Notes: a model not told the origin generated them from the letters alone. 64,000 nt of DNA from a virus (IMGVR_UViG_3300030376_006484:22151-86150), one strand, 5' to 3'; counted from the stretch's first letter, positions 7,608-31,714 are shown. Made by a program: numbers and translations.

Positions 7608-7862
7608 ATGTGGAAAGACGAGATTAAAAAACAGGACTATAATGAAGACGACTTCTTTATGACGGAAGAAGCAGTTGAGGGGAAAGTTGGAGAAAAAATA
7701 CAGGAAATGTATAGTATGGCGGAAGAACTATCTAAAATGCAGAACATTTTGAGTAGCCCTGACTTTCAACGAGGTTTTCCAAAGTATTCATTGAAAGAAA
7801 TTGAGAAGGCTGTAAAGGGGTTAGGTATGGCCGTTAGTGTTATGGAGAGTTTTCCTTCGTGA
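7608..7862 (+). CDS. W-leader protein (MWKDEIKK)
   Basis: AGGTGG RBS before ATG 7608. Confidence 0.7.
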   Translation: MWKDEIKKQDYNEDDFFMTEEAVEGKVGEKIQEMYSMAEELSKMQNILSSPDFQRGFPKYSLKEIEKAVKGLGMAVSVMESFPS

Positions 7863-7892
7863 GCAAAATTATGAGAAATTTTAGGTGATATT

Positions 7893-8156
7893 ATGACATG
7901 GAAAAACAACATTAGAAAAGAAAGTCCTTTGGATGAAAGAGCAGGTTTAGCCGATAACGAAGGTAGAGAAGTTCCTCCAACAGAAGAAGACAAAGAGGTT
8001 CATTCCTACTTAAATGAGATATTAGGAGAATTATCAAGAGAAATGCGTGACATTCCTGTAAGATTTTCAGGAGATAGTGACTTATTAGAAGAGGCTATTA
8101 AACATATTGAAAGGGCTATTTATGCTATTCAAAGAGCCAAAAGAAGGATGAGGTGA
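7893..8156 (+). CDS. W-leader protein (MTWKNNIRK)
   Basis: AGGTGA RBS; leader motif. Confidence 0.75.
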   Translation: MTWKNNIRKESPLDERAGLADNEGREVPPTEEDKEVHSYLNEILGELSREMRDIPVRFSGDSDLLEEAIKHIERAIYAIQRAKRRMR

Positions 8157-8161
8157 TTATT

Positions 8162-8428
8162 ATGACTTGGAAAGATGAAATACAGAAAGAAATGCCTAAA
8201 GGAGAAGGCGGAAAACATAAGCGTATGGGAGAATTATTGGGCGGTATGGGTATGAGAATTACTTTTGATGCTATTACCCAAAAAGAACGACACTACAAAA
8301 GAATAAAAAGTGACGAGGCACAAACTTTGTCTAATTTTTTAAATGAGGCTAAAGATGCCGCATTAGAACTAATAATGAAAATTAATGATGCAAATAAATA
8401 TTATGAAGTAAATAAAGATGCGCTTTGA
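8162..8428 (+). CDS. W-leader protein (MTWKDEIQK)
   Basis: GAGGTGA RBS; leader motif. Confidence 0.75.
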   Translation: MTWKDEIQKEMPKGEGGKHKRMGELLGGMGMRITFDAITQKERHYKRIKSDEAQTLSNFLNEAKDAALELIMKINDANKYYEVNKDAL

Positions 8429-8448
8429 TAGAAAAAAAGGTGATTATT

Positions 8449-8598
8449 ATGACATGGAAAGATAGGATTAAGAAGAAGGAAAGCGAATGTCCCGAATGCG
8501 GTAAGAAAAAAGATTTGGAATTTAGAATTCTTTCAAGAGACAATTACGGTGTAATGTGTAAAGACTGTTATCGTGACAAATCAGTAGCAGGTAAGTGA
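8449..8598 (+). CDS. W-leader zinc-finger protein (49 aa, MTWKDRIKK..CPEC..CKDC)
   Basis: Translated by hand (absent from the ORF track); AGGTGA RBS. Confidence 0.7.
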   Translation: MTWKDRIKKKESECPECGKKKDLEFRILSRDNYGVMCKDCYRDKSVAGK

Positions 8599-8607
8599 GG
8601 TATTCTT

Positions 8608-9564
8608 ATGTTTAGGCTTTTCTTCTCAATAGATGGTGGTAATTTTGCCCCTATTGGAGAAAGTGAAAAGTCACGATTAAGGGCTAGAAATATGGTTGCT
8701 GATATTTCTAGAACGCTTGGTTATTCTTTTAAAGGCGATGAATTCAAAGGTAGTCTTGTTAATGATGAGTCTACAATTTTATATGAAATTAGAGAGAAGG
8801 AATCCGAAGATAAGTGGAAGGATATACTCAAGAGTCGTAAGATAACAGACCCTAGAGCAAGGCGAAAGGATGATGGGAATACTACTAACTTTGGTTGGTC
8901 TACACCTGCTTTTGCAACTAAAGAAGAAATACAGAGGCGAAATGCTCCTTCTGTTTCTAAAGAAGAAATACTAGCCATTGTTGATAGTTACACTGAAGCC
9001 CTTATTTTTCCATTAGTCAAGGAAGCAACTTTGCCTATAATTGAAAAATACAGTGATAGGGATAAGGGCTATGACGACGAGTACGGTGCAGATGGATTGG
9101 AATATTTTGCAATAGCATTAAAGAATTGGTCATACCATCCTGAGAGGGTTTCTAAAGATATTAAATCATTAAATGATAAAGACTATCGTTTATTTTTAAA
9201 TGAGTTACAGAAAGAATTCAAAAATATTCGTAATTTGTCTGTTTATATGGGGCCGGAAGACGGTTATGACATGGAAACCGAAACTTATCTTGGTTCAAAG
9301 GGTAGACGCTCCGAAAGTGCTACTTGGTTTGAAAGGTTTAGAAGTGTATTGAAGGATGATGAGTATTTTATTAACGAATCGTCATACGAGACTGTTGATG
9401 AGTATTGGGAAGATAGAGGAATAACGGCTGATAGAGTTTTGGCTGAATTAAATTCTGCTTTGAATAAGGTTAAATCTTCTTTGCAAGGTAAAGGTTTATT
9501 CAATAATGCTAAGAAAATATTTGGAGATTACAGTAGAAAGATAGTTAGGGGTGAGAAAAAATGA
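8608..9564 (+). CDS. hypothetical protein with internal KWKDILKS motif
   Basis: 318-aa ORF with RBS. Confidence 0.8.
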   Translation: MFRLFFSIDGGNFAPIGESEKSRLRARNMVADISRTLGYSFKGDEFKGSLVNDESTILYEIREKESEDKWKDILKSRKITDPRARRKDDGNTTNFGWSTPAFATKEEIQRRNAPSVSKEEILAIVDSYTEALIFPLVKEATLPIIEKYSDRDKGYDDEYGADGLEYFAIALKNWSYHPERVSKDIKSLNDKDYRLFLNELQKEFKNIRNLSVYMGPEDGYDMETETYLGSKGRRSESATWFERFRSVLKDDEYFINESSYETVDEYWEDRGITADRVLAELNSALNKVKSSLQGKGLFNNAKKIFGDYSRKIVRGEKK

Positions 9565-9797
9565 GTTGGAGAGATGACTTGGCCCGTGATGGTATAACTT
9601 TGGTAATTAAGAGGCAACTTTTTGAAATTTTAGGTAATCAGCCGGAAATTACTGCTAGAGGCATTGAAGAAGCCTTGTATGGTCGTGGTCATAAGAGGGT
9701 AAATATGTCAAAAATTAAAAAATTTGTGGCTAAGACTCCCGAAATACGACTTAACGAAAAATATAGTGAGACTAACACCTATTCATTGGAGAAGTGA
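9561..9797 (+). CDS. small putative winged-HTH protein
   Basis: ITARGIEEAL helix pattern; GGTGA RBS. Confidence 0.6.
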   Translation: MSWRDDLARDGITLVIKRQLFEILGNQPEITARGIEEALYGRGHKRVNMSKIKKFVAKTPEIRLNEKYSETNTYSLEK

Positions 9798-9802
9798 ATA
9801 GA

Positions 9803-10267
9803 ATGTGGTTTGATATTATTAAATCGGTTGAAATTTTGACCGAAAATTCGGCTAGTAAGATGTTAGACGGGTTTAAGACTGCGGTTGAGAAGGGTTATCC
9901 TGCAATTATTACTCCTTTATCGCTTGTTGCTAAGATTCAAGATGGCGAATTGGCCGCTTTTACCTCTTTTAACGATATGGGGAAGTTTTTCTTTGTTGGA
10001 AATAGTTTGACTAATCCAAAATACAAGGGTCGGGGTTATTTTACTCAAATTTTGGCTTCTAGAGATGAATATACTAAGGGAAAACCTAGAATTACTTTGC
10101 TAAATCCTTTGGATGCTAAGTCTAGGGGCATTGTTAGGGCGGTTGTTACCAAAAAAGGTGGTAAGGAAGTGACTTCTTATGCTGATGTTCAAGATATTAT
10201 GGATGAGCAGACCTACAAAGGGATGAAAAGCACTAATTTAGATATGTTTAGGTACAAGGTGATTTGA
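9803..10267 (+). CDS. W-leader GNAT-like acetyltransferase (MWFDIIKS)
   Basis: Acetyl-CoA-binding motif A-like TNPKYKGRGYF. Confidence 0.6.
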   Translation: MWFDIIKSVEILTENSASKMLDGFKTAVEKGYPAIITPLSLVAKIQDGELAAFTSFNDMGKFFFVGNSLTNPKYKGRGYFTQILASRDEYTKGKPRITLLNPLDAKSRGIVRAVVTKKGGKEVTSYADVQDIMDEQTYKGMKSTNLDMFRYKVI

Positions 10268-10458
10268 TGACATGGAAAAACATACTCAAAATTAGTACCG
10301 AAGAGGCAATTCAAGATGCTGAGAGGTATGCAGACCCCGAAGATACTGAAATGGAAAAGGTAGCAGGTGCGGTAACTACATCAAGTGCGGCCCATTCCCT
10401 TCTATTTAGGCCGACCTTTGGCGGTAAGCGAAGGAAGCGCAAAAAGAAGGAGGATTGA
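10267..10458 (+). CDS. W-leader protein with basic C-terminus (MTWKNILK)
   Basis: AGGTGA RBS; ends KRRKRKKKED. Confidence 0.7.
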   Translation: MTWKNILKISTEEAIQDAERYADPEDTEMEKVAGAVTTSSAAHSLLFRPTFGGKRRKRKKKED

Positions 10459-10460
10459 TT

Positions 10461-11531
10461 ATGCCTAAAGATGTAAAAAAGGTCACTGCTACGGTTGGTG
10501 ATGCAATTCTTACTACTAAAGCAGGAATTATTACCTTTCCTAAAAAGTACACTGCTTGGAAGAGACAGTGTAGTAGTTTAGGGCCGGAGAAAGTTGGTGG
10601 TAAGACTTCTCTTTTGGTTGCTTTGAGGCGACATGGTGTTCCTACTAGACCTACTTCTCCTAATGCAGGTGGAGTAAAAGGGATGAAATTCACTTTGATG
10701 GAGATTGAAAAGGTGATAAAGAGTAGACCTAATGGTATTTACTACGATAGTGATGTTGAGACTTTTCAAGAATTACTAGATGATTTAGATATTTACGGGG
10801 ATGGAGGGGATTTAGACCCTGCTTCTATTCCTTTTACTACTTATCCTATGTCTAGAGGAAAGAGAATCCCCGATGCTAAATCTACGAAAATTCATGGTCA
10901 CTATATTGATGAATATTTTGCTTCAAAATTCGCTACATCTGTTAAACTTGACGATGCTAAAGGTTGGAGTAATAAGGAAAAAGGCTTGGCTAATCCTCCA
11001 TTGAAACAGGCTATTTTTGGTGGGCTTCTATTTACTGAAAGTTTAAATGATATTTTGCAGTTGGCTATCAAAGAGATAGAGAATATGGAATACAATATTG
11101 AGATTAAGACAGGGCGTTCTCCTGTTAGATTAGTAAACATTCCTTCTTTTAGGTCAAAGTTAGCAGGTGCGGTAAAATCTTCTTTAGTTGATGGTGCTAT
11201 TAGTATCAAGGGTGTTAGAGGTAAAATGAATGGAATATTTTTCCCTATTAAGACTGAGAAGGAGGAATCATTCGTTGCTGATTATGCTAAGGCTAAAGGT
11301 ATTGGTGGGTCTTTTACTTCTTTCAAGGTGAACATGACTCCTGCGGCAACCAAGAAATTAATTGAAACTTACATGGCTACTTCTAGGGGAGTCAAAGAGC
11401 GAGACATTGTGAAGTCTTGGGTAGATGTAATCAAAAAGAAAACAAAAACTTGTCCTGTTTGTGGGCATGAAAACCATAAGGATGCTAACAAATGTACTAA
11501 TTGTGGTGCTGATATTTCCGATGTAAAGTGA
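10461..11531 (+). CDS. hypothetical protein with C-terminal SWVDVIKK motif and zinc ribbon
   Basis: GGAGG RBS; CPVC...CTNC. Confidence 0.8.
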   Translation: MPKDVKKVTATVGDAILTTKAGIITFPKKYTAWKRQCSSLGPEKVGGKTSLLVALRRHGVPTRPTSPNAGGVKGMKFTLMEIEKVIKSRPNGIYYDSDVETFQELLDDLDIYGDGGDLDPASIPFTTYPMSRGKRIPDAKSTKIHGHYIDEYFASKFATSVKLDDAKGWSNKEKGLANPPLKQAIFGGLLFTESLNDILQLAIKEIENMEYNIEIKTGRSPVRLVNIPSFRSKLAGAVKSSLVDGAISIKGVRGKMNGIFFPIKTEKEESFVADYAKAKGIGGSFTSFKVNMTPAATKKLIETYMATSRGVKERDIVKSWVDVIKKKTKTCPVCGHENHKDANKCTNCGADISDVK

Positions 11532-11536
11532 TTATT

Positions 11537-12190
11537 ATGCGAAGAAAGAGTTGTGCTTTTTGTCAGCATGAGAATGCTAAGGAGTTTGAACAACAGTTGG
11601 AAGACTGTGTTATTTCCTGTGATGATTTAGACCAACAGGAAAATTGGCGTAGTGGTACTGCGGCTCAACATCAAAGAAACCACATGGGGGATTATGTTAC
11701 AAGTAGTAATCCTAAGTGTAATTTCTGTACTGACCCTCTAAGGAAACAATATGAGGTTGGATTAACTGAGGGCAAGTTAGAAGTTTCTATTGTTGCAGAT
11801 ATTTTAGAGACTACTAAGAGTCAAATCCACCGACACATGAAACATCATTTGGCTCCTATTGTTCAAGAGTCTGCGGCTACAATAATTGCTAAGAAGGAAG
11901 TTAATGAAGTTGATATGTTAGCCAATAACTTAGAAGTGTTGGATGGTAAACTTACTGAGATTGCTTCAAGGGATGATTTAGATTCTAAGGAGTTAGATGC
12001 TTTGGTTAAGTTGGCTAGAGAGATTCGTGAGTCATTGAAATACATGATGGAGTTTAAGGGTAAGTTAATACATAAGAGACAGGACACAATAATTATTGCA
12101 CAGATGCAAATTGTCCAAGAAGTTTTGGCTCAAGGACACCCCGAAGTTTGGCTTGATGTAAAGAAGAAGATGCAGGAGAGATTACAATGA
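11537..12190 (+). CDS. putative terminase small subunit (tandem CxxC-HTH repeats plus coiled coil)
   Basis: Two C-x2-C...H-x3-H repeats (QHQRNH, RHMKHH), helical C-terminus, upstream of TerL; function inferred. Confidence 0.5.
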   Translation: MRRKSCAFCQHENAKEFEQQLEDCVISCDDLDQQENWRSGTAAQHQRNHMGDYVTSSNPKCNFCTDPLRKQYEVGLTEGKLEVSIVADILETTKSQIHRHMKHHLAPIVQESAATIIAKKEVNEVDMLANNLEVLDGKLTEIASRDDLDSKELDALVKLAREIRESLKYMMEFKGKLIHKRQDTIIIAQMQIVQEVLAQGHPEVWLDVKKKMQERLQ

Positions 12191-12447
12191 ACTGGAAAGA
12201 AATACTAAAGCAGAATATGAAGAGTTATCCTAAAAATATACTTTATGATGACATAGAATACGAATTAATTCATGTTGATGATAAGGCTATTGAATATGAT
12301 AAAAATGGTGACCCTATGGGAACTTATGTACCAAAGGAAGCCGATGAAAATTTAGACGAACAAGTGGTATATTTGGATTTACCAGATGCAAAACGCCACA
12401 TGATGCTTTTATTAAATAAAGAAGAAATGCAGGAGAGATTACAATGA
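12187..12447 (+). CDS. W-leader protein (MNWKEILKQ)
   Basis: Leader motif; ends MQERLQ like the upstream gene. Confidence 0.75.
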   Translation: MNWKEILKQNMKSYPKNILYDDIEYELIHVDDKAIEYDKNGDPMGTYVPKEADENLDEQVVYLDLPDAKRHMMLLLNKEEMQERLQ

Positions 12448-12689
12448 GTTGGAAAAAAATATTGAAACAAGATGAAATATCCCGAATGAAAGATTCTCTA
12501 AACGCTAATATGGATTTACTTAATGATTATTTTAAAAAAATGGAAGAGTTAATGGGTTCCCTTGAGTCTCAACAAATAGAAAAAGCAGAAAAACTTTGGA
12601 CGGATATGCAAGACATGGTAAAAGATGTTGAGGGCTTAGGCTTACACAAAAATATTCACGCTTACTTAAACAGGATTATTTTAGACTAG
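12444..12689 (+). CDS. W-leader protein (MSWKKILKQ)
   Basis: Leader motif; junction repeat. Confidence 0.75.
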   Translation: MSWKKILKQDEISRMKDSLNANMDLLNDYFKKMEELMGSLESQQIEKAEKLWTDMQDMVKDVEGLGLHKNIHAYLNRIILD

Positions 12690-12700
12690 GAGAGATTACA

Positions 12701-13114
12701 ATGAGTTGGAAAGATATACTGAAATTAAGACCAATAGAGGATATACCCGATGAAATGTATGATGATTCATATTCTTATCAAAATCCTAAAGAAGTTGAGA
12801 GTTTGATGAGAAGAAAACAAAAGAAGGGTGGGCTACTTTGGTATATTGAAAAGGATTTTGCACAAAACGCAAATGTGGCGGATTGGACTACTGATGAAGG
12901 AGTTAAATTTTGGGATATGGTAGTTTCGGATTTGAAAAATATTTACAATACTAATAATTTAACACATAAGAACTATAAAAATGGAACTATTCTAGCGGGT
13001 AGAGAAGGCGTGGACAAATCTGTTTTTGCTATGATAATGAACCTAGACCCGAAGTTTGGTGCGCCTATAAGTGGTAGTCAATTTATGAGAGAAAATAAAT
13101 TCCGAGGCTTTTGA
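12701..13114 (+). CDS. W-leader protein (MSWKDILKL)
   Basis: Leader motif; junction repeat. Confidence 0.75.
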   Translation: MSWKDILKLRPIEDIPDEMYDDSYSYQNPKEVESLMRRKQKKGGLLWYIEKDFAQNANVADWTTDEGVKFWDMVVSDLKNIYNTNNLTHKNYKNGTILAGREGVDKSVFAMIMNLDPKFGAPISGSQFMRENKFRGF

Positions 13115-13130
13115 TACAGGAGAGATTACA

Positions 13131-13346
13131 ATGAAATGGGAAAAACTACTAAAAAATGATTTTGAAAAAATTGATTTATTTATACAAAAGATGAAAAGAA
13201 TCAATATTTCAGCACAAGAAGCGTTTAAAGAATTTGAAACTGAAAAGTCTATAGAGATGCAACAATTAGCGACTACTATTATTGATATGGGAACTGCTAT
13301 AATGGACTTGGAAAAGATGAGAGATAGACAAGAGAAATTACAATGA
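13131..13346 (+). CDS. W-leader protein (MKWEKLLKN)
   Basis: Leader motif; junction repeat. Confidence 0.7.
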   Translation: MKWEKLLKNDFEKIDLFIQKMKRINISAQEAFKEFETEKSIEMQQLATTIIDMGTAIMDLEKMRDRQEKLQ

Positions 13347-13368
13347 GAGTGAACAAGTAGAGATTAGC

Positions 13369-13443
13369 ATGAGTTGGAAAAATATACTAAAAGATGCAAA
13401 GAAAGTCACTATGAAGTTTCACCCAAAAGAGGAATTACAATGA
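13369..13443 (+). CDS. 24-aa W-leader peptide or remnant (MSWKNILKDAKKVTMKFHPKEELQ)
   Basis: Translated by hand; leader with almost no payload. Confidence 0.45.
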   Translation: MSWKNILKDAKKVTMKFHPKEELQ

Positions 13444-13895
13444 GTTGGATGGGTATAGTCAAACAAAAGACTTACGAGGTTTATATTAAAAATCATCGTA
13501 ATGCTAAAAAATACCCTAATTGGACTAAAATTAATTTACAACTAGACGGGTATGACCAATCTACATCTTCTAGAGAATTGGCTAAACATTTTTTTGAAGA
13601 AAAGTCTTTCAATCTTGGAGACAAAAATCCTTTCATTGTTGAAGGAGACAACACATCGGGTTATGTCGTTCCTTATGGTTTTGGAACTGCAAGTCCCATG
13701 ATGGGTTCCGAATACAATAGATTTCAAGGAGAGAATGTTCTTTTTGCAAATGGCCCAACATATTTTTATGAGATTGTTGAGTCGGGAGAACAACCAAAGA
13801 ATGCTAAACCGCCTACTTTTACTATGGCTGAAAAAATTAGTAATTATGTTAGGATTAACAAAGAACAAGGTGTAGATGTTAGCGATTATTTTTAA
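13440..13895 (+). CDS. W-leader protein (MSWMGIVKQ)
   Basis: Start moved to ATG 13440 at the junction repeat. Confidence 0.75.
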   Translation: MSWMGIVKQKTYEVYIKNHRNAKKYPNWTKINLQLDGYDQSTSSRELAKHFFEEKSFNLGDKNPFIVEGDNTSGYVVPYGFGTASPMMGSEYNRFQGENVLFANGPTYFYEIVESGEQPKNAKPPTFTMAEKISNYVRINKEQGVDVSDYF

Positions 13896-13904
13896 GGTGA
13901 TTAA

Positions 13905-15518: not shown

Positions 15519-15526
15519 GTGTTACT

Positions 15527-18043
15527 ATGGCTATACAAAAAAAGGTAAGATTAGACCAAGAAGCCTTTGATTCTTTGAATCTAACAGAAGAAGAGGTAAT
15601 GGATGCCTTGTCCGGTGAACCTTTACAAGAGTACGAAAGGACAGGTGATGTTAGAATAGCACGAAAAGGTGTTAGAGATGTACTTTTGCCTATTCTAGAA
15701 AAGAGAATACAGGACATGGGTATTGAATCTAATGAGAAGGGTAAGTCCTTAGTTGCTCTAACAATGTCAAAGGTCACAAGTATTCTAACTAGGGGTAGGT
15801 TAGAGGGTTTGTTAGATAAGGATGAGAATACAAAGGTCAAAGATAGAAGGGTATATCAAAGCCTCATTAATAGATTATACAGTGGGATTCTCTACGAAGA
15901 TAGAAAATTAGAAGTAGAGGACTTTATTACAGGTATTGATTCTACAAAGATTTCAAGGAACCCAAAAAGAGATAGAATTACTTCTACTTACTTAAATAAT
16001 CTAATAAATAGAGAATTGGAAGGTAAAAATAGGGATGCTGCTTCTGTTTGGTTTGATTCCCATTCTTCTAGTCACAAGGCAATAGAAGACGGTTTGATTG
16101 CATTTAACAATCAACAAAGTGCTAAAAGAAGAGAAGGCATTTCTCCCGTAGTAGTAATTAGAGATGACATTCTAACTTTCATGGGTTCTACTTCAAAGAA
16201 GATTTTGGATAGGAAAGATACTATTTACAACACTTGGAAACAAATTGAAGGTAGATTTGACGGTGTTAAAAAACAATCGGAGATAGTGAAGAAACAATTT
16301 GGTTTAGAAGACAATCACCCCTTTGCTAAGGCAACGGCTGATTTAGAAAATTATGTTGTGGAGTATTCTCCTGTTTCAGTAAAAAGAGCAAATCCTAAAT
16401 TGGTTGCTCTTGATTTGTTGGATGCTTTTATGAAAAGGTCGGGAAGAAATGTTTTTGAAACGGACACTACAGTTACTATAGATTCTGTAGGGATGCCGAC
16501 TGTAGAAGAAGGAACCATGAGCATGACTGATAAAACAGATGAGCAGAACCAAATAACTAGGAAGGAAATGGAAGCGGCCAACAAAGGCTTAGGGGTTGCA
16601 GTAGACCCTATTTCTAGATACTACATGAATAAAATGTTGGGGGGTGCTTTTATGGATGAAAGGCACTTTGAAGAAATTACCGAGTTACTCAAAGATTATT
16701 CTAAGAGAATTAGTTTCGGTAAGCGTGATTATGAAAATCTAGATAAATTCATTTCCGATATTCCCAAAATTGCCGGTGCTAATACTGACACAGTGTTTTT
16801 GCCTATTCACTTCTCAAGAGGGTTCTTGGATGCAGGGGATAATAAAATGGATTCTAAGATAGACCCAATAAACAAAATATGGCGAGAGTATTTTATGGCT
16901 TTAGGTGGACTAATTGAGCAGGGCTACAGAATGCCTAAGAAAACAAAACAAACATCAAACATTGGAACAATCGGCGAAGAGGTTAAAGAGACAGGGGCGA
17001 AATTAACTCTAAATACCTATGTGGCTCAATTTCAAGGAAGGCCCATGAATTTTAAAGAAACAAGTAAAGAACAGGCAGATGCACTAAAAGAATTATTTGT
17101 TCGCTTAGAGTTGTATATGTTTAGTCCACTATCAAACCCCTTTATTACGCTAGGGTATAATTTTAAAGACATTAAGAAAACCTCAAGTTACAAAATCATG
17201 TCTGTTTATGCCGATAGAAATAATGTTTTGGAAGGAGAACTAACACAGGATGAAAACAAAAATTGGGTATTTGCAGGACAACCTTTTGAAAGTAAAGCAG
17301 AAGCCGAAACTGCAAGGTCAAAGGGTTCAACTAATTCCACTAAGGCTATCTCTACATTATACCAACTTCTTGATAAAAAAGGGGGTAGCATGATTACCAA
17401 TAAACAAATAAAAATCATTGAAGAATTTTTAGAATCCCTTCGGGTTAATGTTGAGGTTGAAAGTGTCAAAAGACAGACTAACAAACTATACAAATTCGTA
17501 ATAAAAAGGCTATACAAAAAAGCAGGTAAGGGTTTCTTAGACCGAGCAAGAGAAGGTCTAGGGAGACTTGTTGCTTCTGTATTCAATAAAATTAATGAAA
17601 CAGGTAGCGTAACTACACTAGGAGTAGATAGTGCAGACTTCAAAGGCGAAGACTATGACATTGATGATGTAGTGGCGTTATTGGAATTGAAAGATTTCTT
17701 AGCAGAAAACGCAGATAGGCTAAACAATAAAAAGAAAGCAGAAACACTAGTAGGGAAATTCAACCAAATATCTAAGGCTAATCCTATCAAAAACAAAATC
17801 TTGCAAGCACATGATTCCTTTAGAATACTGAAAGGCTTGCCTATCTATTATGGTAAAGGGCAAACGGATTCAGTAGAAGACATTTCTAAAATGATTGATG
17901 TTGTTTATGATAAAATGGGTATTCATATAGTTGGTAATGAGATTGTTAAGATGGTGGAAGAGGTTGATTCATTCACTTCTATTGCTACTAATGTTGGTGT
18001 GACAGAAGAAGTTGTCTACTTTGTCAAGGCTAACTTTAGGTGA
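15527..18043 (+). CDS. large hypothetical protein (possible internal virion protein)
   Basis: 838-aa ORF with AGGTG RBS. Confidence 0.75.
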   Translation: MAIQKKVRLDQEAFDSLNLTEEEVMDALSGEPLQEYERTGDVRIARKGVRDVLLPILEKRIQDMGIESNEKGKSLVALTMSKVTSILTRGRLEGLLDKDENTKVKDRRVYQSLINRLYSGILYEDRKLEVEDFITGIDSTKISRNPKRDRITSTYLNNLINRELEGKNRDAASVWFDSHSSSHKAIEDGLIAFNNQQSAKRREGISPVVVIRDDILTFMGSTSKKILDRKDTIYNTWKQIEGRFDGVKKQSEIVKKQFGLEDNHPFAKATADLENYVVEYSPVSVKRANPKLVALDLLDAFMKRSGRNVFETDTTVTIDSVGMPTVEEGTMSMTDKTDEQNQITRKEMEAANKGLGVAVDPISRYYMNKMLGGAFMDERHFEEITELLKDYSKRISFGKRDYENLDKFISDIPKIAGANTDTVFLPIHFSRGFLDAGDNKMDSKIDPINKIWREYFMALGGLIEQGYRMPKKTKQTSNIGTIGEEVKETGAKLTLNTYVAQFQGRPMNFKETSKEQADALKELFVRLELYMFSPLSNPFITLGYNFKDIKKTSSYKIMSVYADRNNVLEGELTQDENKNWVFAGQPFESKAEAETARSKGSTNSTKAISTLYQLLDKKGGSMITNKQIKIIEEFLESLRVNVEVESVKRQTNKLYKFVIKRLYKKAGKGFLDRAREGLGRLVASVFNKINETGSVTTLGVDSADFKGEDYDIDDVVALLELKDFLAENADRLNNKKKAETLVGKFNQISKANPIKNKILQAHDSFRILKGLPIYYGKGQTDSVEDISKMIDVVYDKMGIHIVGNEIVKMVEEVDSFTSIATNVGVTEEVVYFVKANFR

Positions 18044-18047
18044 TTTT

Positions 18048-21473: not shown

Positions 21474-22174
21474 TGTGGTTTGATATTCTTAAAGAAAGAG
21501 TTGGTTCTAAGGTTCAGCAGGAAATGTCTGCTTTAGCAGATAAAGTACCTATACCTAATATGGATAAAGATTTTGACTTTAAGAAAGAATATACATATGA
21601 CGAATTAATACCATTATTAGAATTCGGTAGTAGTGTTGAATACGATTTAGACAAGGTTCTCAAAGAGTTTATGTCTGAAAAATATAGATATGAAAATATG
21701 TCTGAATCAGACCGTAAGGCTTTAAGAAGAAGAGGTGAAATGCCTAAACCTTTTACTTTAGAAGAAGTAAAGGATAAGATTCTTTTTAGATTGGATGGTG
21801 GTGATTTTGATATTAAAGAAGAAAACGGTAAAACAATTATTAATGTACCTACATTTAAAGAAGATGTTGATAATCTAAAAACAAATGCCTTAGATGAATT
21901 ATATGCGGGTAAAAAGCAAACTGCTAATCAACCTAAAAAACCTAAATGGTATACTGATTATAGGGCGGAGGATGTTATAGACCCCGATGTATATACCGAG
22001 AGGAAAAAGAAAACCATGGCTGAGAATTTTCTTGGTAGGTTGATGGCCGGTTTAAGGAAGGAAAGAAGGGGGTTCCATACACCATCAAAAAACAAACTAC
22101 ACCCTCAATACGGTAGACTTAGAGAACTTGAAGCCCGTAATAAAAAGGTGCATAGGAGAGAGGATTTAAAATGA
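21473..22174 (+). CDS. W-leader protein (MWFDILKE)
   Basis: 233-aa ORF, TAATG coupling. Confidence 0.75.
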   Translation: MWFDILKERVGSKVQQEMSALADKVPIPNMDKDFDFKKEYTYDELIPLLEFGSSVEYDLDKVLKEFMSEKYRYENMSESDRKALRRRGEMPKPFTLEEVKDKILFRLDGGDFDIKEENGKTIINVPTFKEDVDNLKTNALDELYAGKKQTANQPKKPKWYTDYRAEDVIDPDVYTERKKKTMAENFLGRLMAGLRKERRGFHTPSKNKLHPQYGRLRELEARNKKVHRREDLK

Positions 22175-22196: not shown

Positions 22197-22574
22197 ATGA
22201 TGTGGTTTGAAGAATTGAAGAAAGAGAAGGATGCCTGTTATCGTAAGGTAAAGTCCCGCTACAAAAAGTGGCCTTCTGCTTATGCTTCGGGTGCTTTGGT
22301 TCAATGCAGAAAAGTTGGTGCAAAGAATTGGGGTAATTCTGTAAAGAAAGGCGGAGATAACTTCGCTAGAGAAAAGAAAGAAGGACTTCACGGTTGGTTT
22401 TCACGAAGAGGTGGAGATGGACAGAAAGGTTGGGTTTCTTGTCAATCATGTGAAGATGATAAAGAAGGGACAAAACCCTGTGGCCGTAAAGATGCTACTA
22501 AAGGAACTAAACAAAGATGTAGGCCGACATGTGCGGCTTGCAAAACCTACAAAAGAAGGAAGGGAACAAAATGA
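22197..22574 (+). CDS. W-leader basic Cys-rich protein (DACYRKVK..WPSAYASGALVQCRK)
   Basis: Modules resemble those I recall from marine phages. Confidence 0.75.
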   Translation: MMWFEELKKEKDACYRKVKSRYKKWPSAYASGALVQCRKVGAKNWGNSVKKGGDNFAREKKEGLHGWFSRRGGDGQKGWVSCQSCEDDKEGTKPCGRKDATKGTKQRCRPTCAACKTYKRRKGTK

Positions 22575-22965: not shown

Positions 22966-23367
22966 ATGAGTTGGAAAATTTTAGTCAAGGCATTTTCTTG
23001 TCCTGTTGCTACTCAAGATTTGAAATTGAATACTAAAAATAGAGATAGAGCAGTCAAGGAAAAGTACATTCAGTACGGGCCTTTGAATTTAGAAGATGAA
23101 GACTATTGGGTTAGGTATGCAAAGAAATGGAATACTACTGCTGATGTTGCTAAGAAGTCTAATTGTAGTAATTGCGTAGCGTTTGATATTTCTCCTAGAA
23201 TGGATGAATGTATGCCTCTAAATACAGACGAAGATGGCCGTTTAGGTTATTGTTGGATGCACGATTTCAAATGTCATTCTGCTAGAACTTGCTACACTTG
23301 GGCTAAAGGTGGCCCAATTGATGATGATAAGACCTCAAAAGAAAACCAACAGAGGAGAGAAAAATGA
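22966..23367 (+). CDS. W-leader Cys-rich protein (MSWKILVKA)
   Basis: CPVATQD, CSNC, GYC..HDFKC..RTC..W. Confidence 0.75.
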   Translation: MSWKILVKAFSCPVATQDLKLNTKNRDRAVKEKYIQYGPLNLEDEDYWVRYAKKWNTTADVAKKSNCSNCVAFDISPRMDECMPLNTDEDGRLGYCWMHDFKCHSARTCYTWAKGGPIDDDKTSKENQQRREK

Positions 23368-23651
23368 GTTGGAAAACCATTCTAAAAAAAGACAAAAAAG
23401 ATATGCGGGTTGGGACTGTATATCCTAGTGATAGAAGCGGTAAGAAAATCATGATGCTCACCCATGAAGGAAAGAAAATTCATGCGGGTGCTAAAGGATA
23501 TGGTAACTACAAAGGAAAGGGTAAAAATCGTGGTGGTGGAACCCACAAGAACCCTAAAAGAAGAAAGTCATTCAAAGCAAGGCATAAGTGTCACGAATGC
23601 AAAGGGAGAATAACAACTCCTAGATGTTTAGCCTGTAAGAAATTATGGTGA
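23364..23651 (+). CDS. W-leader basic protein (HKNPKRRKSFKARHKC)
   Basis: Leader MSWKTILKK; highly basic, probably nucleic-acid binding. Confidence 0.75.
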   Translation: MSWKTILKKDKKDMRVGTVYPSDRSGKKIMMLTHEGKKIHAGAKGYGNYKGKGKNRGGGTHKNPKRRKSFKARHKCHECKGRITTPRCLACKKLW

Positions 23652-23703: not shown

Positions 23704-25344
23704 ATGGCTGATAAAAGACGATTTTCCTTCACAAATCTATTCCGAAGGACTACTCCTAAACCCAATGATAGAAAGGTCTACAATGTAGGAATTCAAGAGA
23801 AAGAGCAATCCTACATGATGACAGGGCCATTGGTCTACAATGTCGTGGGGCAATCGGTAATTGTTAGAACATGTATTACTCAACTTAAGCAAGAAATTTT
23901 TCGCAGAGGCTATGTTTGGGAAAAGGCGTTTGAGTCTCGTTGTCTATCTTGTCAAAAAACACACAAGATGCCTGTACTTGAATGTGCTAGATGTGGTTCT
24001 ACAGACTTAGAAAAACCTAATCCAAAGCAGTTAGAGTACGCTGAAAATTTCATAGAAGGGTATGTAAATAAGTCCGAGCAAAAATTCATTGATGTATTTA
24101 AAGAATTAGAAGATGATTTGAATATCATGGATGATGCGTATATTGTTCTTGTCAAAGAGTATTACTTGGATGGTAACGGCAAAATCCGTATGCACCGAAT
24201 CAAGGAATTGTTTAGAGGCGACCCTGTAACTATGACTATCTATGCTGATGAAGTAGGCATTAGAGGAACAAAAGGTTTCACTTGTATTAACCATAGAAGC
24301 CATCTTGCCCATGAACCACATGAAAGTTGTGAAGAATGCGGTAGTCCTCTTTATCCTGTTCACTATGTAAATCGTGCTAATGGAGAACAGCAATATTTCT
24401 TACAAGGAGAAGTTTTGCACTTTAGCAAATACAGTCCTAGTAGAATGTATGGGCAGTCTCCAATTCTAACTTTATTCAATAATATAATGACTCTTATCGC
24501 TATGGAAAACTATGTCAATTCTTCTTACACCAAGAGTAGAATGCCTAGAGGTTTGTTAGCAGTACAAACTAGAAATATGGATTCAATGGCCGCATTTTGG
24601 AGAGGTGTAAAAGAACGAATGGAACAAGACCCTCACTATATTCCTGTTATGGGAATTGAAGCCGAGAATGGTAAGGGGTCTGTTGAATGGATTAAATTCA
24701 TGGACAGTTTAAAAGAAATGGAATATGTCGCAGTGAAGGATGATTTGCGAGATAGAATTTCTGCATTCTTTGGAGTAAGTAAAGTATTCATGGCTGACAA
24801 CACTACTAGCGGTGGACTTAACAATGAAGGTATGCAAATCTTAGTCACTAACAGAGCAGTACAAATGGCTCAAAATGTTTACAATAATTATGTATTCCCG
24901 TTCTTAACTAAAGAGTTTGGAATTACAGATTGGGTTCTAAAATTACCCCCTAGTGAAGAAGAGGATGAAATAGCAGTACTTCGTAAAAGAGAGATTGAAG
25001 TTAATATTGCGGCTTCTACTAAGAATCTAGGATTTGAAGTAGATATGGATGAAGACGGACAGTTTACTTTTAGTAAGCCGGAACCAAAAGAAACACCTAA
25101 GCAAGAAGGAGAAGAAGATTCTAGCGTTGATATTGACCCTTATGCGGGAACAAATATTGATGCTTCGCAAATGGGACAGATGCAAGAACAGATGATGCAA
25201 GCCGGAAGTAAACCACAAGAGAACCCACCGGCCACAAGAAATAAAGCAAGGATGAGCGTAGGGCCGGATAAGCGCATGACAGGATTACCTAAAGAAGCGG
25301 GTAATCAAAATGTTGATTCAAGAAGTGAAAGGAGAATACCATAA
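23704..25344 (+). CDS. portal protein with zinc-finger insertions
   Basis: DDAYIVL, EVLHF..YGQSP, MPRGLL, ISAFFGV portal-like motifs; position between TerL and the protease. Confidence 0.85.
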   Translation: MADKRRFSFTNLFRRTTPKPNDRKVYNVGIQEKEQSYMMTGPLVYNVVGQSVIVRTCITQLKQEIFRRGYVWEKAFESRCLSCQKTHKMPVLECARCGSTDLEKPNPKQLEYAENFIEGYVNKSEQKFIDVFKELEDDLNIMDDAYIVLVKEYYLDGNGKIRMHRIKELFRGDPVTMTIYADEVGIRGTKGFTCINHRSHLAHEPHESCEECGSPLYPVHYVNRANGEQQYFLQGEVLHFSKYSPSRMYGQSPILTLFNNIMTLIAMENYVNSSYTKSRMPRGLLAVQTRNMDSMAAFWRGVKERMEQDPHYIPVMGIEAENGKGSVEWIKFMDSLKEMEYVAVKDDLRDRISAFFGVSKVFMADNTTSGGLNNEGMQILVTNRAVQMAQNVYNNYVFPFLTKEFGITDWVLKLPPSEEEDEIAVLRKREIEVNIAASTKNLGFEVDMDEDGQFTFSKPEPKETPKQEGEEDSSVDIDPYAGTNIDASQMGQMQEQMMQAGSKPQENPPATRNKARMSVGPDKRMTGLPKEAGNQNVDSRSERRIP

Positions 25345-25565: not shown

Positions 25566-25570
25566 TTTTA

Positions 25571-27205
25571 ATGTCTTTTATGGATGTTCTAAAGATTCAA
25601 TTTCCTACCGAAGAGGCTAAGGAAGAAGACTTGAATGAAGTAAAAGAAGAGATGGAGGTACTAGAACCTCAAACATTATCGTCATTAAAAACTAATTCCG
25701 AATTGATGGGATATTATAAGACCATAAAGAATTCTTTATCGGAAATAGTAGGTGAACAAATAAAATATAATAAGGATGAAAAAGAGGCTAGGGAAACAAC
25801 TAATAACGGCAGAAAAGAAAAGGGTAGAAAGCCTTTGGTAGTTAGGAATTCTGCTAAACTAGATTTACAAGACCCTCTAAATCCTAAAGAAAGAATGACT
25901 TTTGACATTCCACTAAAAGGAATCACTGAGGCAAAGATAGGAAAAATCGTTTTGGGAGAATTATTAGAATCTATCAAAGCAAAAGTTAAGCGTTACTCCG
26001 AAGGAACAATAATGCAACCTAAAGAAAAAGAAGTTGTGGCGGAAGAACCTAAAATTCCTAGAGTAAAGGAAATAAATGATTTCGTTAATTCGGGAGAAAA
26101 CAGAGAAAATACTTCTTTTGATATTGAAAAACTAAGTGCGGTATTACTAGATATAGAAAAAACAATACAAGAAAATACTCCCCCAACTCAAGATTTATCT
26201 ATGCTTCTAGACTTAGGAAAACTACGCTCACCAATTGTTGTTGCAATAGATTCTGCTAAATCTATTATTGATAAAGTACAAGGTAGAAATGCTGATACTA
26301 TGAATAGGTTGAGAATACTACTGCAAGATATTAGAAAGTCGGATTTAGTAGCGGTTCCCTATAAAAGAAAATTAACCCCTCATATTAAGTCCCTTGAAGA
26401 ATTAAAAAACCTAACTTTTACTATTAAGGGACATACAGTGCAACCTGCAACCATAAACAAAGTAAAAGAACTACGGGATATGTTAGTACAACTGAATAAA
26501 AACAGAAACACAAATTACGATGTTGTGAAGGCAATGGGTAGAGGGGCTACGGCAAAAAATAATTATAGTTTCTTAAAGAATGTTAGTAAAAACACCCAAT
26601 CTATTTTCTATAATTATGTTAAAGCAGGAACAGATTTTTTAAGTCCTCTGCGACAAAAAAATAATAAGATAAGGTATTTTAAAGATGACGCTACTACCGA
26701 TAACGAGAAAAAACGCTATGGTGAATTAGAAAAGGTAGGTAAGGAGATACATAGTTTGTTAAATTTGGAAGACAGTCCGGCAAGCCTAAATCAAAAATAT
26801 TTAGATGATTTAGAATCTGCTAGGAAAGAAGGTAAAAGTAGTTTTACTATTAATGATGGTGTAGAACCTTTAGAAGTGATAATAGACGGATTGGAACCAA
26901 AAGATGTTGAAGACTATATTTTGTTTATTGCTAAGGAAAATGGAAACGATAGTCTCTTAGAAGAGTTGATGCAGACCTACCAATCTTTAACAGGTATAGT
27001 AATAGATGTTGCAGAAAACAAAAAGATGCGAAAAGAACTTGCTAAACTAAGAAAGGAAGTTTTAGCAAGTGTTACACAAAGCGAAGACCAACGCACTGAT
27101 TTGAATAGACTTTTGGATGATGTAAGGGAATCGGGATTAGAGCCTATGGAAATTACCGATAGTCTTGCTAGCGAAAGGAAAAAACAAAAAGAAGAAGAGG
27201 AATAA
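25571..27205 (+). CDS. large helical protein with leader variant MSFMDVLK
   Basis: GGTGA RBS; about 545 aa. Confidence 0.75.
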   Translation: MSFMDVLKIQFPTEEAKEEDLNEVKEEMEVLEPQTLSSLKTNSELMGYYKTIKNSLSEIVGEQIKYNKDEKEARETTNNGRKEKGRKPLVVRNSAKLDLQDPLNPKERMTFDIPLKGITEAKIGKIVLGELLESIKAKVKRYSEGTIMQPKEKEVVAEEPKIPRVKEINDFVNSGENRENTSFDIEKLSAVLLDIEKTIQENTPPTQDLSMLLDLGKLRSPIVVAIDSAKSIIDKVQGRNADTMNRLRILLQDIRKSDLVAVPYKRKLTPHIKSLEELKNLTFTIKGHTVQPATINKVKELRDMLVQLNKNRNTNYDVVKAMGRGATAKNNYSFLKNVSKNTQSIFYNYVKAGTDFLSPLRQKNNKIRYFKDDATTDNEKKRYGELEKVGKEIHSLLNLEDSPASLNQKYLDDLESARKEGKSSFTINDGVEPLEVIIDGLEPKDVEDYILFIAKENGNDSLLEELMQTYQSLTGIVIDVAENKKMRKELAKLRKEVLASVTQSEDQRTDLNRLLDDVRESGLEPMEITDSLASERKKQKEEEE

Positions 27206-27207
27206 TT

Positions 27208-27555
27208 ATGTGGGAACATGTACTAAAAGAAACAATAGAAAAAGAAAACAGTCCGATTTTACAATCGTTAGACGATAAGAAAAGAAAAAGGTTGAAGAAG
27301 ACTCTACAATCAACAGAACCTACGGAGTACTTCGGCCAAGATTTTACTCGCTTAGGTGAATTGATTGATATGCTCAAAGAATTAGAGTTAATCAAATCCG
27401 ATGAAAAAATGACAAAGAAGTTTAAGTCCATAGATGAAAGGAACATTGATATGTTAGCCCTATCTAGCAAACTTCGTAAGGAGTATGAATTACTGTACCG
27501 ACAACTTCGGGAAGTCATTTATCCAAGTAGAAAGGGGGATTTAAGAGATGAGTGA
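27208..27555 (+). CDS. W-leader protein (MWEHVLKE)
   Basis: 115-aa ORF. Confidence 0.75.
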   Translation: MWEHVLKETIEKENSPILQSLDDKKRKRLKKTLQSTEPTEYFGQDFTRLGELIDMLKELELIKSDEKMTKKFKSIDERNIDMLALSSKLRKEYELLYRQLREVIYPSRKGDLRDE

Positions 27556-27772
27556 AACAGACGAAGAAGTTTTAGAAATCCTAAAGGCTCTAGTGGGTAG
27601 AATCAAGACTCTAGAACAAGCAGTCTACAACAAAGACAATATTCTAATGAAGTCGGGATTTGTTGTTGCTCAATCCCCTACTCCTTCAATTACTAACTCA
27701 ACCATGCCGACAGATGATGTAATTCATAAAATGTCTTGGGATGATATAGAGAAATTTGTAGGTGGACGGTGA
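27548..27772 (+). CDS. small coiled-coil protein with C-terminal MSWDDIEK motif
   Basis: 74-aa ORF. Confidence 0.7.
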   Translation: MSETDEEVLEILKALVGRIKTLEQAVYNKDNILMKSGFVVAQSPTPSITNSTMPTDDVIHKMSWDDIEKFVGGR

Positions 27773-27777
27773 AACTT

Positions 27778-28017
27778 ATGCCCGAAAAAATGACTAAAGA
27801 AGAAGTTAAGGTTGCACAAGCAATTGAGCAAGTTAGAATTGTTAAAGAATTAGTACAACAGGCTAGTGCTGAAAGAATTGCTTACGATGATGAATCGGAA
27901 GAAGTTAAAGTAAAGCGACCTAAAAAGACAGGCGAAAAAGACAAGACCAAGATTGAGAACAACAAAGGTACTCATTCGGGATATGGATTAGGCGGCGAGG
28001 AAACTCATTTTAAGTGA
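27778..28017 (+). CDS. hypothetical protein
   Basis: GGTGA RBS. Confidence 0.65.
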   Translation: MPEKMTKEEVKVAQAIEQVRIVKELVQQASAERIAYDDESEEVKVKRPKKTGEKDKTKIENNKGTHSGYGLGGEETHFK

Positions 28018-28026
28018 GGCGAATAA

Positions 28027-30495: not shown

Positions 30496-30504
30496 AAATC
30501 CGAT

Positions 30505-30520
30505 AAGGCTATATAGTCAA
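30505..30520 (+). promoter_or_regulatory. archaeal TATA-like promoter (AAGGCTATATAG) upstream of the protease/capsid operon
   Basis: About 25 nt upstream of the start codon, consistent with a leaderless transcript. Confidence 0.5.
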
Positions 30521-30535
30521 TTATAGAACGAAGGT

Positions 30536-31714
30536 TTGAGTAATATGTCGCCAATCATTAAGGCGCAACGATTTGATGACTTTCAAATAATCAAAAGCGA
30601 CGAATTAATGATAGGTGGATATGCTTCTATTGAAATGGTAGATAAACAAAATGATTTGATTACCTTAAAATCACTTAAAGAAGCAGTAAACAAATTTATG
30701 GAACAAAAAAACTTCCGAAATGTAATGACAAACCACTCAAATGTCCAAGTAGGAGAAGTAGTAGAAAATTACCGAGACTCAAATGGAAGACTATGGAAAA
30801 CCGAAGTAGATGATGTAGGATTTTTTGTAGTAATTAAATTAAGGGACGACATAGAAAAAGCCAAAGAAATAGGCAGAGGAATTCGCAAGGGAACATTAAG
30901 GTCTTTTAGCATTGGAGGACAAGCATTACAGAAAGTAAAAAAGCGCAGTGAAGAGTTAGGCGAATTTAGTGAAATTAGCAAACTTGAATTGCACGAAGTA
31001 ACAATCTGTGAAAAAGGAATAAATCCCGAAGCGAAATTTGACATACTCAAACAAGAGGTGACTAACATGAATAAATTGGAAAAAGCATTGGCGGAATTGG
31101 ATACACTTCTAGAAGAAGTGAACACTCTCCGTAAAGAAGAAGAAGAAGCCCCCGAAATGGAAAACATGGCGGGAGACGAAGAAGAAATGATGGGCGGAGA
31201 ATATATGGATGATACCCGTAAGGCTCCTACTGCTACGCTTGACGGCGGCTCTGTAGAAACAGGTGAACCTGCTGAAAGAGTTGTTGTAAGCGGTGGAAAA
31301 CCAACAGGTTCTTCACAAGCAGAAGAAGAAGGTATGGTTTCAAAAGCATTCGGTAACGGAGAATTTGATACTCTAAACCTTTCCCCCGAAAACATTGAAA
31401 AGGCTTATGCTCAGTTTAGAGCAGAGCAAATGGAAAAACTTGCATACGATAATTTGCAAGACTCCTTCACTAAGAGATTTGCTAGTGAAGTTACTAACCG
31501 TGAAGAAATGGTTGCAAAGTCCGAGTACGATGCACAATCAGAAATCACTGCTCTCCGTGAGCAATTTAGTGACCTTCGTAAGTCTTTGACAGAAGGAACA
31601 GAAGAAATTCGCAAGGCCAACGAAGCCGCACAAGAAGTTAAGGTGCTTTCCCTAGAGGAAGTTGCTGACATGGATTGGAGCGACATTCACAAGATGGTTA
31701 GCGGAAATATTTGA
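30536..31714 (+). CDS. HK97-type prohead protease fused to a coiled-coil scaffold
   Basis: IGGYAS..VDKQND, HSN..VG, SFSIGG, LHEVTIC..GINPEA; acidic coiled-coil C-terminal half. Confidence 0.88.
   Translation: MSNMSPIIKAQRFDDFQIIKSDELMIGGYASIEMVDKQNDLITLKSLKEAVNKFMEQKNFRNVMTNHSNVQVGEVVENYRDSNGRLWKTEVDDVGFFVVIKLRDDIEKAKEIGRGIRKGTLRSFSIGGQALQKVKKRSEELGEFSEISKLELHEVTICEKGINPEAKFDILKQEVTNMNKLEKALAELDTLLEEVNTLRKEEEEAPEMENMAGDEEEMMGGEYMDDTRKAPTATLDGGSVETGEPAERVVVSGGKPTGSSQAEEEGMVSKAFGNGEFDTLNLSPENIEKAYAQFRAEQMEKLAYDNLQDSFTKRFASEVTNREEMVAKSEYDAQSEITALREQFSDLRKSLTEGTEEIRKANEAAQEVKVLSLEEVADMDWSDIHKMVSGNI

Follow-up and report, generated by a model that had tools for sequence, protein, structure and literature searches.

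The internal proteins of phage T4 are few. In scaffolds of the P22 type and in the HK97 protease, whose C-terminal tail targets the capsid, the usual handle for the capsid protein is a short helical peptide close to the end of the chain. In T-even phages, the internal proteins are diverse and have only the capsid-targeting sequence (CTS) in common, according to PMC3012670. Many head-internal proteins of phiKZ and SPN3US are reported to be processed by the prohead protease at a common motif (PMC5694885, PMC7411985, PMC10052503). Here, we consider a short leader peptide shared by about 19 otherwise unrelated open reading frames (ORFs) in a stretch of viral DNA of 64,000 nucleotides, namely bases 22,151-86,150 of the 86,150-bp contig IMGVR_UViG_3300030376_006484. 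This stretch is called the window, its positions are used throughout, and ORFs are named by their first position. An earlier note on this DNA had read the leader, which it compared with the C-terminus of the scaffold protein, as a candidate signal that targets cargo to the capsid.

Judging by the sequence comparisons given below, the leader is a lineage-wide portable tag on the N-terminus, and rarely on the C-terminus, of soluble proteins encoded in the head-gene block. In our opinion, the chances are slightly better than even that this leader, M-(S/T)-W-(K/E/Q)-(D/N)-I-L-K, is a two-part docking and cleavage tag that would work like the T4 CTS. The W-x-D-I part copies the tail peptide of the scaffold and would attach the protein to the capsid protein or the scaffold core while the procapsid is being assembled. 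The [DN]-I-L-K part repeats the sequence of the probable sites of cutting after Lys by the S78 prohead protease and would permit removal of the tag, and the free cargo would be left inside the head and then delivered with the DNA. Docking, cutting, packaging and delivery are all steps that we infer from the sequences and by analogy, and it is by analogy with T4 that the tagged proteins would form the swappable set of injected effectors suggested in the earlier note.

The likeness to the T4 CTS, which is carried by IPI-III and Alt and served by the protease gp21, consists in a short N-terminal leader on unrelated, variable, small and often basic proteins; by the same analogy, the end of the leader would be the cleavage motif of the head protease. 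The differences are considerable, since here the protease is of the S78/HK97 type, the predicted cut is after Lys and not Glu, the host is archaeal, about 19 genes are tagged per genome, with at least 214 clusters across the relatives, and C-terminal copies exist. The leader and the T4 CTS are not known to bear any likeness in sequence. Because the protease is of the S78 and not of the gp21 type and the leaders are not alike, the system should be considered an analogue of that of T4 and not a member of it. The principle is known from T4; the different protease family, the archaeal host and the much larger repertoire are new here. In comparison with P22-type scaffolds and the tail of the HK97 protease, the peptide WSDIHK likewise follows a long helix, predicted with low confidence, and its W-x-D-I reappears in the cargo leader, whereas the handle in those systems is not copied onto many unrelated proteins. 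Encapsulins also use short terminal peptides to address unrelated enzymes inside an HK97-fold shell, but they are compartments of cells. Most of their peptides stand at the C-terminus; they differ in consensus and stay on the cargo, and no protease is known to be involved. The propeptides of phiKZ and SPN3US differ in being long and mutually dissimilar, only the cut site being common to them, with no 8-residue leader.

All 19 starts given in the earlier note proved to be ATG codons; the ORFs are 24-544 aa long, and their N-termini are as claimed. The strict pattern W-x-x-[ILV]-[ILV]-K, which takes the form M-(x)-W-x-x-[ILV]-[ILV]-K at the N-terminus, fits 13 of the 19, and the remaining six are looser. 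A variant longer by one residue, W-K-[DN]-x-I-x-K, is found on ORFs 7608, 7893, 8162 and 8449, whereas ORF 22197 has W-F-E-E-L-K and ORF 25571 has F-M-D-V-L-K, without the W. One further ORF, 9561-9797, with a degenerate leader, had been absent from the list. Six-frame translation of the whole 86,150-bp genome gave 15 strict matches on the + strand versus 2 on the - strand. All 15 of the former are situated inside real ORFs, 13 of them directly after the start Met, and no strict + strand match was found in the genome outside 8.8-27.2 kb of the window. When a position matrix built from relatives was applied to the window proteins, 16 sites reached at least 9 bits, while 200 shuffles gave 1.1 on average and 6 at most. 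The two internal copies previously reported were also found in place, with the W at 8815 in ORF 8608-9564 and at 11418 in ORF 10461-11531. As to a Sec/Tat signal or membrane anchor, no run of 15 hydrophobic or small residues occurs in any of the 19 tagged proteins.

The tagged genes are confined to the head-gene neighbourhood, both here and in five complete relatives, which agrees with the enrichment expected in the earlier note. In this genome, they occupy only 7.6-27.6 kb of the window and belong to a block of 34 + strand genes, from 7608 to 33057, in which neighbours are at most 52 nt apart and overlap in 11 cases, and which holds the terminase, portal, protease-scaffold and capsid genes. 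The W-x-x-I-L-K DNA pattern is found 10-13 times on the structural strand of the five complete relatives, 0-2 times on the other strand and 0-1 times in the reversed control, and nearly all structural-strand matches cluster near the terminase and capsid genes. Relative to the start of the capsid gene, tagged ORFs cluster at -10 to -5 kb, with none from -4 to +1 kb, and in some relatives insertion hot spots, occupied by very different tagged genes, are situated at +3 to +5 kb and +8 to +9 kb. Absence of the leader from tail and replication genes, as stated earlier, holds for this genome; some relatives do have tagged accessory genes inserted downstream of the capsid gene.

The breadth of distribution was studied in 162 sources (2.43 Mb) with a pattern slightly looser than the strict one. 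The relatives were collected using the terminase as an anchor, chosen because a search with ORF 13905 gave one locus only. N-terminal matches numbered 673 on the structural strand and 6 on the other, and 649 of the 673 open ORFs of at least 30 aa, corresponding to 567 distinct proteins. After trimming of the leader, these proteins fell into 214 single-linkage blastp clusters, the largest of which has 87 members. With one representative per cluster, the consensus is M (86%), S/T (62%), W, K/E/Q (79%), D/N (62%), I (83%), L (71%) and K (98%), the W and the residue classes at the final three positions being imposed by the search pattern. Conservation in the same 214 representatives stops exactly at K, and the next column has background composition. 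A degenerate DNA pattern of the leader was found in at least 119 stretches of IMG/VR; 66 of the 80 loci listed share proteins with this genome, and gene contents vary greatly between relatives. No description of the leader was found in the magrovirus papers searched (PMC5434244, PMC10160649, PMC11706807) or by broader literature searches, subscription journals being outside the coverage.

By its gene content, the virus is a magrovirus-like (Magrovirales) archaeal head-tailed virus. In Philosof et al. 2017 (PMC5434244), magroviruses are characterized by marine head-tailed genomes of about 90 kb, a capsid protein nearest to those of haloarchaeal tailed viruses and their own replication genes. 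The 86-kb genome, the affinities of the capsid protein and the presence of replication genes (an ATP-dependent ligase, a PolB fragment and a UvrD-type helicase) fit this description. Eleven matches of the capsid protein were obtained in a phage collection, 8 of them in haloviruses and 3 in viruses of methanogen-related archaea, with about 25% identity. The head genes encode the large terminase subunit, a portal, a Peptidase_S78 protease-scaffold and an HK97-type major capsid protein, and the tail tube gene then follows. At least 598 relatives, all marine, are present in IMG/VR, several of them complete at 90-96 kb. No tRNA genes were found by ARAGORN in window positions 1-64000.

That the leader is carried by unrelated folds, as had been proposed, is supported by the GNAT, DUF5872 and DUF5754 assignments and from weak EF-hand and zinc-ribbon matches. 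The AlphaFold2 (AF2) model of ORF 9803 has a mean predicted local distance difference test (pLDDT) score of 87.7 and a predicted TM score (pTM) of 0.82, with pLDDT below 50 for residues 1-6, and the PDB matches listed for it are GNAT-type acetyltransferases (best E 1.2e-5, TM 0.46-0.55). Pfam domains begin past the leader, DUF5872 at residue 14 of 22197 and DUF5754 at residue 18 of 23364. Phage homologues of 22966 align from query residues 11-22, also past the leader, with 34-41% identity; those of 22197 align from residues 4-10 and those of 23364 from residue 6, which means an overlap with the final residues of the tag. The 22966 product, a 7-Cys protein resembling a high-potential iron-sulfur protein (HiPIP), would be an odd cargo if packaged. 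In comparison with PHROGs, ten tagged proteins matched families of unknown function only, and an Atlas search, PHROGs and Pfam gave no functional lead for the 356-aa protein 10461 except a zinc ribbon.

Gene fusions and fissions agree with a leader that is an add-on. Eight related loci have the two modules of gene 22197 as separate ORFs; in 5 of these loci the leader pattern fits both halves, and the other three show near-matches, their halves starting with MTELWFDIIK, (V)SWKEVLK or MSLWFEELK. The fused gene of the window has kept a decayed copy, NWGNSVKK, at the junction of the modules. In two relatives, the C-terminal part of 10267 is joined to the GNAT gene without a leader, and in several relatives the homologues of 10461 end at the motif (...KSWVDIVRV, then stop).

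The peptide was reported earlier to echo the C-terminus of the scaffold and of ORF 27548. Both peptides are present and the W-x-D-I likeness stands, but their strictly terminal position does not, as they are located 6 and 5 residues before the stop, the proteins ending in ...MDWSDIHKMVSGNI and ...MSWDDIEKFVGGR, respectively. Membership of the protease in S78 is given by PF04586 (41.4 bits versus a cut-off of 21, residues 20-177). The AF2 model of the protease-scaffold has a mean pLDDT of 45.7 and does not resolve the protease domain, and only its helical C-terminal half can be used, with caution; in this low-confidence model, helices span residues 176-200 and 281-363, and the tail peptide forms a short helix, 378-385, following a long one. 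The tail peptide has the form M-[DS]-W-x-D-[IL]-[HN]-[KR]. Its W-x-D-[IL] is kept in 66 of 66 complete homologues and its last two positions vary, with T, N, S or L at the last position in four divergent relatives. FDILK, at the junction past the protease domain (...GINPEA[KR]FDILK), is present in each of 68 distinct homologues and also in all four of a more divergent set. The capsid N-terminus has GGN-[SDAT]-[LIVM]-L-K-Q in all 67 distinct sequences, and L26, K27 and Q28 are invariant in a 40-sequence alignment. The earlier statement that the HK97 protease cuts after Lys agrees with the cleavage of the capsid protein at K103/S104 in HK97, the archetype of S78-type systems, reported in PMC10275583.

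The small head-module gene 27548 has 69 distinct homologues, many of which end in MDWSDIHKMV... as the scaffold does, and ...ILK near its N-terminus is conserved; from its heptad-like sequence, the protein is read as helical. In some clades of the head-module gene 27208, W and ILK stand up to nine residues apart, e.g. MTWDYYGEGEDFILK, which fits two separable elements. Peptides of the scaffold type keep W-x-D-I without L-K, at the junction and in the capsid [DS]-[IL]-L-K is kept without W, and the cargo leader has both. Prediction of a complex between the capsid protein (40-row alignment) and residues 1-35 of 23364, made without controls, gave a score of 0.00, which speaks neither for nor against binding.

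A further comparison concerns T4-like cyanophages. The DUF5872 module of 22197 and an internal module of a cyanophage protein of about 530 aa (gp114 / T4-GC119), found in hundreds of records (370 and 483), are 71-88% identical over about 45 residues. Small conserved modules make up the whole cyanophage protein, and the halves of 22197 have their counterparts in two of them; other magrovirus single genes share modules with it as well. Before every module there is a junction ending in Glu, several being I/L-x-E (TINE/R, TIRE/A, TILE/R, QFDE/A and EVTNE/S, with the slash at the junction). The module itself begins right after the leader Lys in the magrovirus (K/KEKDACY) and after Glu in the cyanophages (E/GKKDACY), while a roseophage encodes the same module alone, without any leader. 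From its sequence, the cyanophage chain looks like a polyprotein cut by a T4-type head protease. It differs in that its modules are parts of one protein with Glu-ending junctions, whereas the magrovirus has separate genes with their own W-x-x-I-L-K leaders. In the T4-like cyanophage loci L295:2050-3639, L296:1924-3495, L297:214-2124 and L298:562-2007, a module chain of about 480-640 aa adjoins the small terminase gene.

Several other explanations of the leader deserve consideration, and two of them place the conserved information in the nucleic acid. Conservation at the DNA level only, named in the earlier note as grounds for abandoning its proposal, is not the case: in 561 distinct DNA contexts, taken from 161 related loci as well as this genome, synonymous codons vary freely, Leu being encoded by all six codons (CTA 133, TTA 99, TTG 88, CTT 67, CTC 46, CTG 9), Ile by three (ATA 212, ATT 202, ATC 34) and Lys by two (AAA 379, AAG 173). 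The window leaders, when aligned on the W codon, differ at synonymous sites as well. Upstream of 566 leader ORFs from the window and the loci, the DNA carries at most 0.75 bit per position, and 'GAGATTACA' occurs in only 46 of 566 contexts. Such synonymous freedom, together with weak upstream conservation, indicates selection on the peptide, and a DNA-level repeat as the whole explanation is ruled out by the same two observations. A recombination linker for cassette movement, formed by 24 conserved nt and a ribosome-binding site with the peptide as a by-product, seems quite improbable to us for these reasons and because C-terminal and internal copies exist. It draws on the tagged genes at insertion hot spots, on gene contents that differ greatly between relatives and on a local exception, about 15 identical upstream bases plus the leader in four consecutive genes, 12187-13131. 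This repeat, present at four junctions on the + strand (12172-13130), reads ...caggagagattaca followed by ATG; the upstream genes overlap the next start, and the common bases mean that the preceding genes end alike, in ...QE(R/K)LQ (...MQERLQ or ...QEKLQ). The repeat could be a DNA-level driver of cassette duplication or exchange, and the linker effect may be secondary rather than the function. Upstream of the tagged ORFs of this archaeal virus and the loci, a Shine-Dalgarno-like G-rich block (GGAG / GGTG) is situated at -12 to -9. Such a block, together with the dominance of AAA, GAT and ATA codons, would suit a translation-initiation or mRNA feature, such as an A-rich start boosting expression. 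We regard this as very improbable, since TGG is invariant, amino-acid conservation is position-specific with synonymous change, and copies also occur inside and at the ends of proteins.

Other explanations accept selection on the peptide. The tag might be a short linear motif recruiting viral proteins to a hub other than the capsid, for example a chaperone, a replication factor or a proteolytic machine of the virus or the host, which the head proteins would use too. W-x-x-[ILV] with amphipathic-helix spacing belongs to a common kind of peptide-in-groove motif, the tagged set is diverse and soluble, and binding of the tag to the capsid protein is something that we infer. Nevertheless, a hub of this kind appears unlikely, because neither the replication genes nor the remainder of the genome carries the tag, the tag is specifically like the scaffold tail, the protease junction and the capsid N-terminus, and no candidate gene for the hub was identified. 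Slightly lower is the probability that we assign to a propeptide only, cleaved by the prohead or a host protease for activation or timing, without targeting, with the proteins acting in the infected cell. The recurrence of the I-L-K end at likely protease sites and the conservation stopping exactly at K would be explained in this way, but the invariant W and the likeness to the non-cleavable scaffold peptide would not. Moreover, prohead proteases of this family are generally thought to be active inside the procapsid, so that their substrates would need to be there. Finally, the tagged genes could represent one fast-diverging family of paralogues in which only the N-terminus is still recognisable. 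Some neighbours do look paralogous, 7608, 7893 and 8162 being similar in length and having the same leader variant, but this is hardly credible for the whole set, which includes different folds and families (GNAT, DUF5872, DUF5754, Cys-rich HiPIP-like, zinc ribbon) and gives 214 clusters after leader trimming.

The docking and cleavage tag, which we prefer, also has a number of points weighing against it. HVTV-1, the halovirus that is the nearest cultured relative examined, has no such leader in its head module, and about 19 tagged genes per genome are far above the number of T4 internal proteins. The capsid N-terminus and the protease junction are conserved over their entire neighbourhood, so that I-L-K conservation alone does not single out these sites, and [ILV]-L-K is not rare in Lys-rich proteins, about 0.6 occurrences being expected per 400 aa by our own estimate. 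Since the junction and capsid sites have no W and the scaffold peptide has no L-K in many relatives, the two-part character of the tag is a reconstruction. As for the cyanophage comparison, the label 'structural protein' in several GenBank records is not traceable to proteomic data, and the main text of Sullivan et al. 2010 (PMC3037559) treats T4-GC119 as a hypothetical protein.

If loading and cleavage are what the tag signals, virion cargo, and not cytoplasmic early genes, would account for about a fifth of the gene content in an abundant group of ocean viruses, which would change the reading of their 'hypothetical' genes. It would also mean that archaeal viruses, with an HK97-type protease, evolved leader-directed cargo loading independently of T4. 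An 8-residue handle would then allow injected effectors, and likely anti-defence proteins, to be found in uncultured viruses from sequence alone. A bolder view, to which we assign somewhat less than an even chance, is that magroviruses, which rank with the most abundant viruses of archaea in the ocean, pre-load their capsids with a rapidly exchangeable arsenal of enzymes and DNA-binding proteins, about 19 per genome and from hundreds of families, for delivery to the host together with the viral DNA. The address code would have two parts, W-x-D-I as a mimic of the docking peptide of the scaffold and I-L-K as the cut site of the S78 protease. In that event, any protein gaining 8 residues would become cargo, and no known natural capsid-cargo system would be larger; none from an archaeal virus would precede it. 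For protein-encapsulation engineering, a tag of 8 residues for HK97-fold shells would be of interest. Should the tag have another function, a motif on more than 200 unrelated families would still mark an unknown hub in these viruses. The features considered are collected in Table 1.

Table 1. Leader-bearing genes, related peptides and head genes of the window
Feature	Position	Strand	Basis
84-aa ORF, variant leader MWKDEIKK (W-K-D-x-I-x-K form)	7608..7862	+	ATG; no Pfam family
87-aa ORF, variant leader MTWKNNIRK	7893..8156	+	ATG; no Pfam family
88-aa ORF, variant leader MTWKDEIQK	8162..8428	+	ATG, ORF length
49-aa ORF, variant leader MTWKDRIKK, then four-Cys zinc-ribbon-like segment	8449..8598	+	zinc-ribbon Pfam matches sub-threshold only
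Internal copy WKDILK, residue 70 of 318-aa ORF 8608-9564	8815..8832	+	matrix score 21.8 bits
78-aa ORF, degenerate leader MSWRDDLAR	9561..9797	+	translation
154-aa GNAT-fold protein, leader MWFDIIK	9803..10267	+	AF2 model, PDB matches
63-aa ORF, leader MTWKNILK	10267..10458	+	ATG; fusion to GNAT gene in relatives
Internal WVDVIK, residue 320 of ORF 10461-11531, directly before zinc ribbon	11418..11435	+	Zn_ribbon_3 E 8.1e-6, just under cut-off
86-aa ORF, leader MNWKEILK	12187..12447	+	ATG, strict pattern
81-aa ORF, leader MSWKKILK	12444..12689	+	ATG, strict pattern
137-aa ORF, leader MSWKDILK (consensus form)	12701..13114	+	ATG, strict pattern, cluster consensus
71-aa ORF, leader MKWEKLLK	13131..13346	+	ATG, strict pattern
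24-aa mini-ORF, leader MSWKNILK, little beyond the tag	13369..13443	+	ATG, strict pattern
151-aa ORF, leader MSWMGIVK	13440..13895	+	ATG, strict pattern
Terminase large subunit	18012..19475	+	PHROG 38 E 1.1e-54
233-aa ORF, leader MWFDILK	21473..22174	+	ATG, strict pattern
125-aa basic 8-Cys two-module protein (DUF5872 module and second module), leader MMWFEELK	22197..22574	+	DUF5872 residues 14-82, under cut-off
130-aa ORF, leader MIWKKILK, weak EF-hand-like segment	22571..22963	+	EF-hand matches below cut-offs
133-aa 7-Cys protein, leader MSWKILVK	22966..23367	+	resembles phage proteins annotated as high-potential iron-sulfur protein
95-aa very basic protein (isoelectric point 10.6), leader MSWKTILK, DUF5754	23364..23651	+	Pfam E 3e-7, residues 18-49
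Portal protein	23704..25344	+	Pfam Phage_portal E 7.9e-12; PHROG 18178 E 1.8e-65
544-aa ORF after portal gene, leader-like MSFMDVLK (no W)	25571..27205	+	ATG; no family
115-aa conserved head-module gene, leader MWEHVLK	27208..27555	+	98 ORF matches, 73 distinct
74-aa head-module protein, WDDIEK (27737-27754) near C-terminus, LEILK (27572-27586) near N-terminus	27548..27772	+	homologues
Prohead protease (Peptidase_S78) fused to scaffold domain	30545..31714	+	Pfam E 2.1e-10; PHROG head maturation protease
FDILK, residues 165-169, directly past protease domain, before indel-rich linker: candidate self-cleavage site	31037..31051	+	homologues
WSDIHK, residues 378-383, near scaffold C-terminus: candidate capsid-docking peptide	31676..31693	+	homologues
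Major capsid protein, HK97 type	31726..33057	+	PHROG major head protein E 8.7e-23; tblastn about 25% identity from residue 59
SLLK, residues 24-27 of capsid protein (GGNSLLK/QAG): candidate maturation cleavage site	31795..31806	+	conservation

Some neighbouring genes should also be mentioned. An 822-aa protein (28027-30495, +) with an ATP-dependent DNA ligase domain (residues 252-437) is encoded between the small scaffold-like genes and the protease, roughly at the place of very large head-module proteins in the halovirus HVTV-1, and it might itself be a packaged enzyme. The 662-aa ORF directly after the terminase (19485-21473, +) has a weak match to an HNH-endonuclease PHROG (E 1.1e-4), and in HVTV-1 HNH endonuclease genes likewise flank the terminase. 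Just upstream of the terminase there are two large ORFs (13905-18043, +; 537 and 838 aa) with no Pfam or PHROG family, the 537-aa ORF 13905 having a single relative in the IMG/VR scan.

Outside the head block, the family B DNA polymerase appears split or partial (61013-62819, -): ORF 61914-62819 covers only positions 222-366 of the polymerase profile and abuts ORF 61013-61912. At the end of the tail block, an HMGL-like gene (54750-55598, +) of the pyruvate carboxyltransferase / HMG-CoA lyase type has its nearest genome matches in bacteria, with 32-36% identity, and may be an auxiliary metabolic gene.

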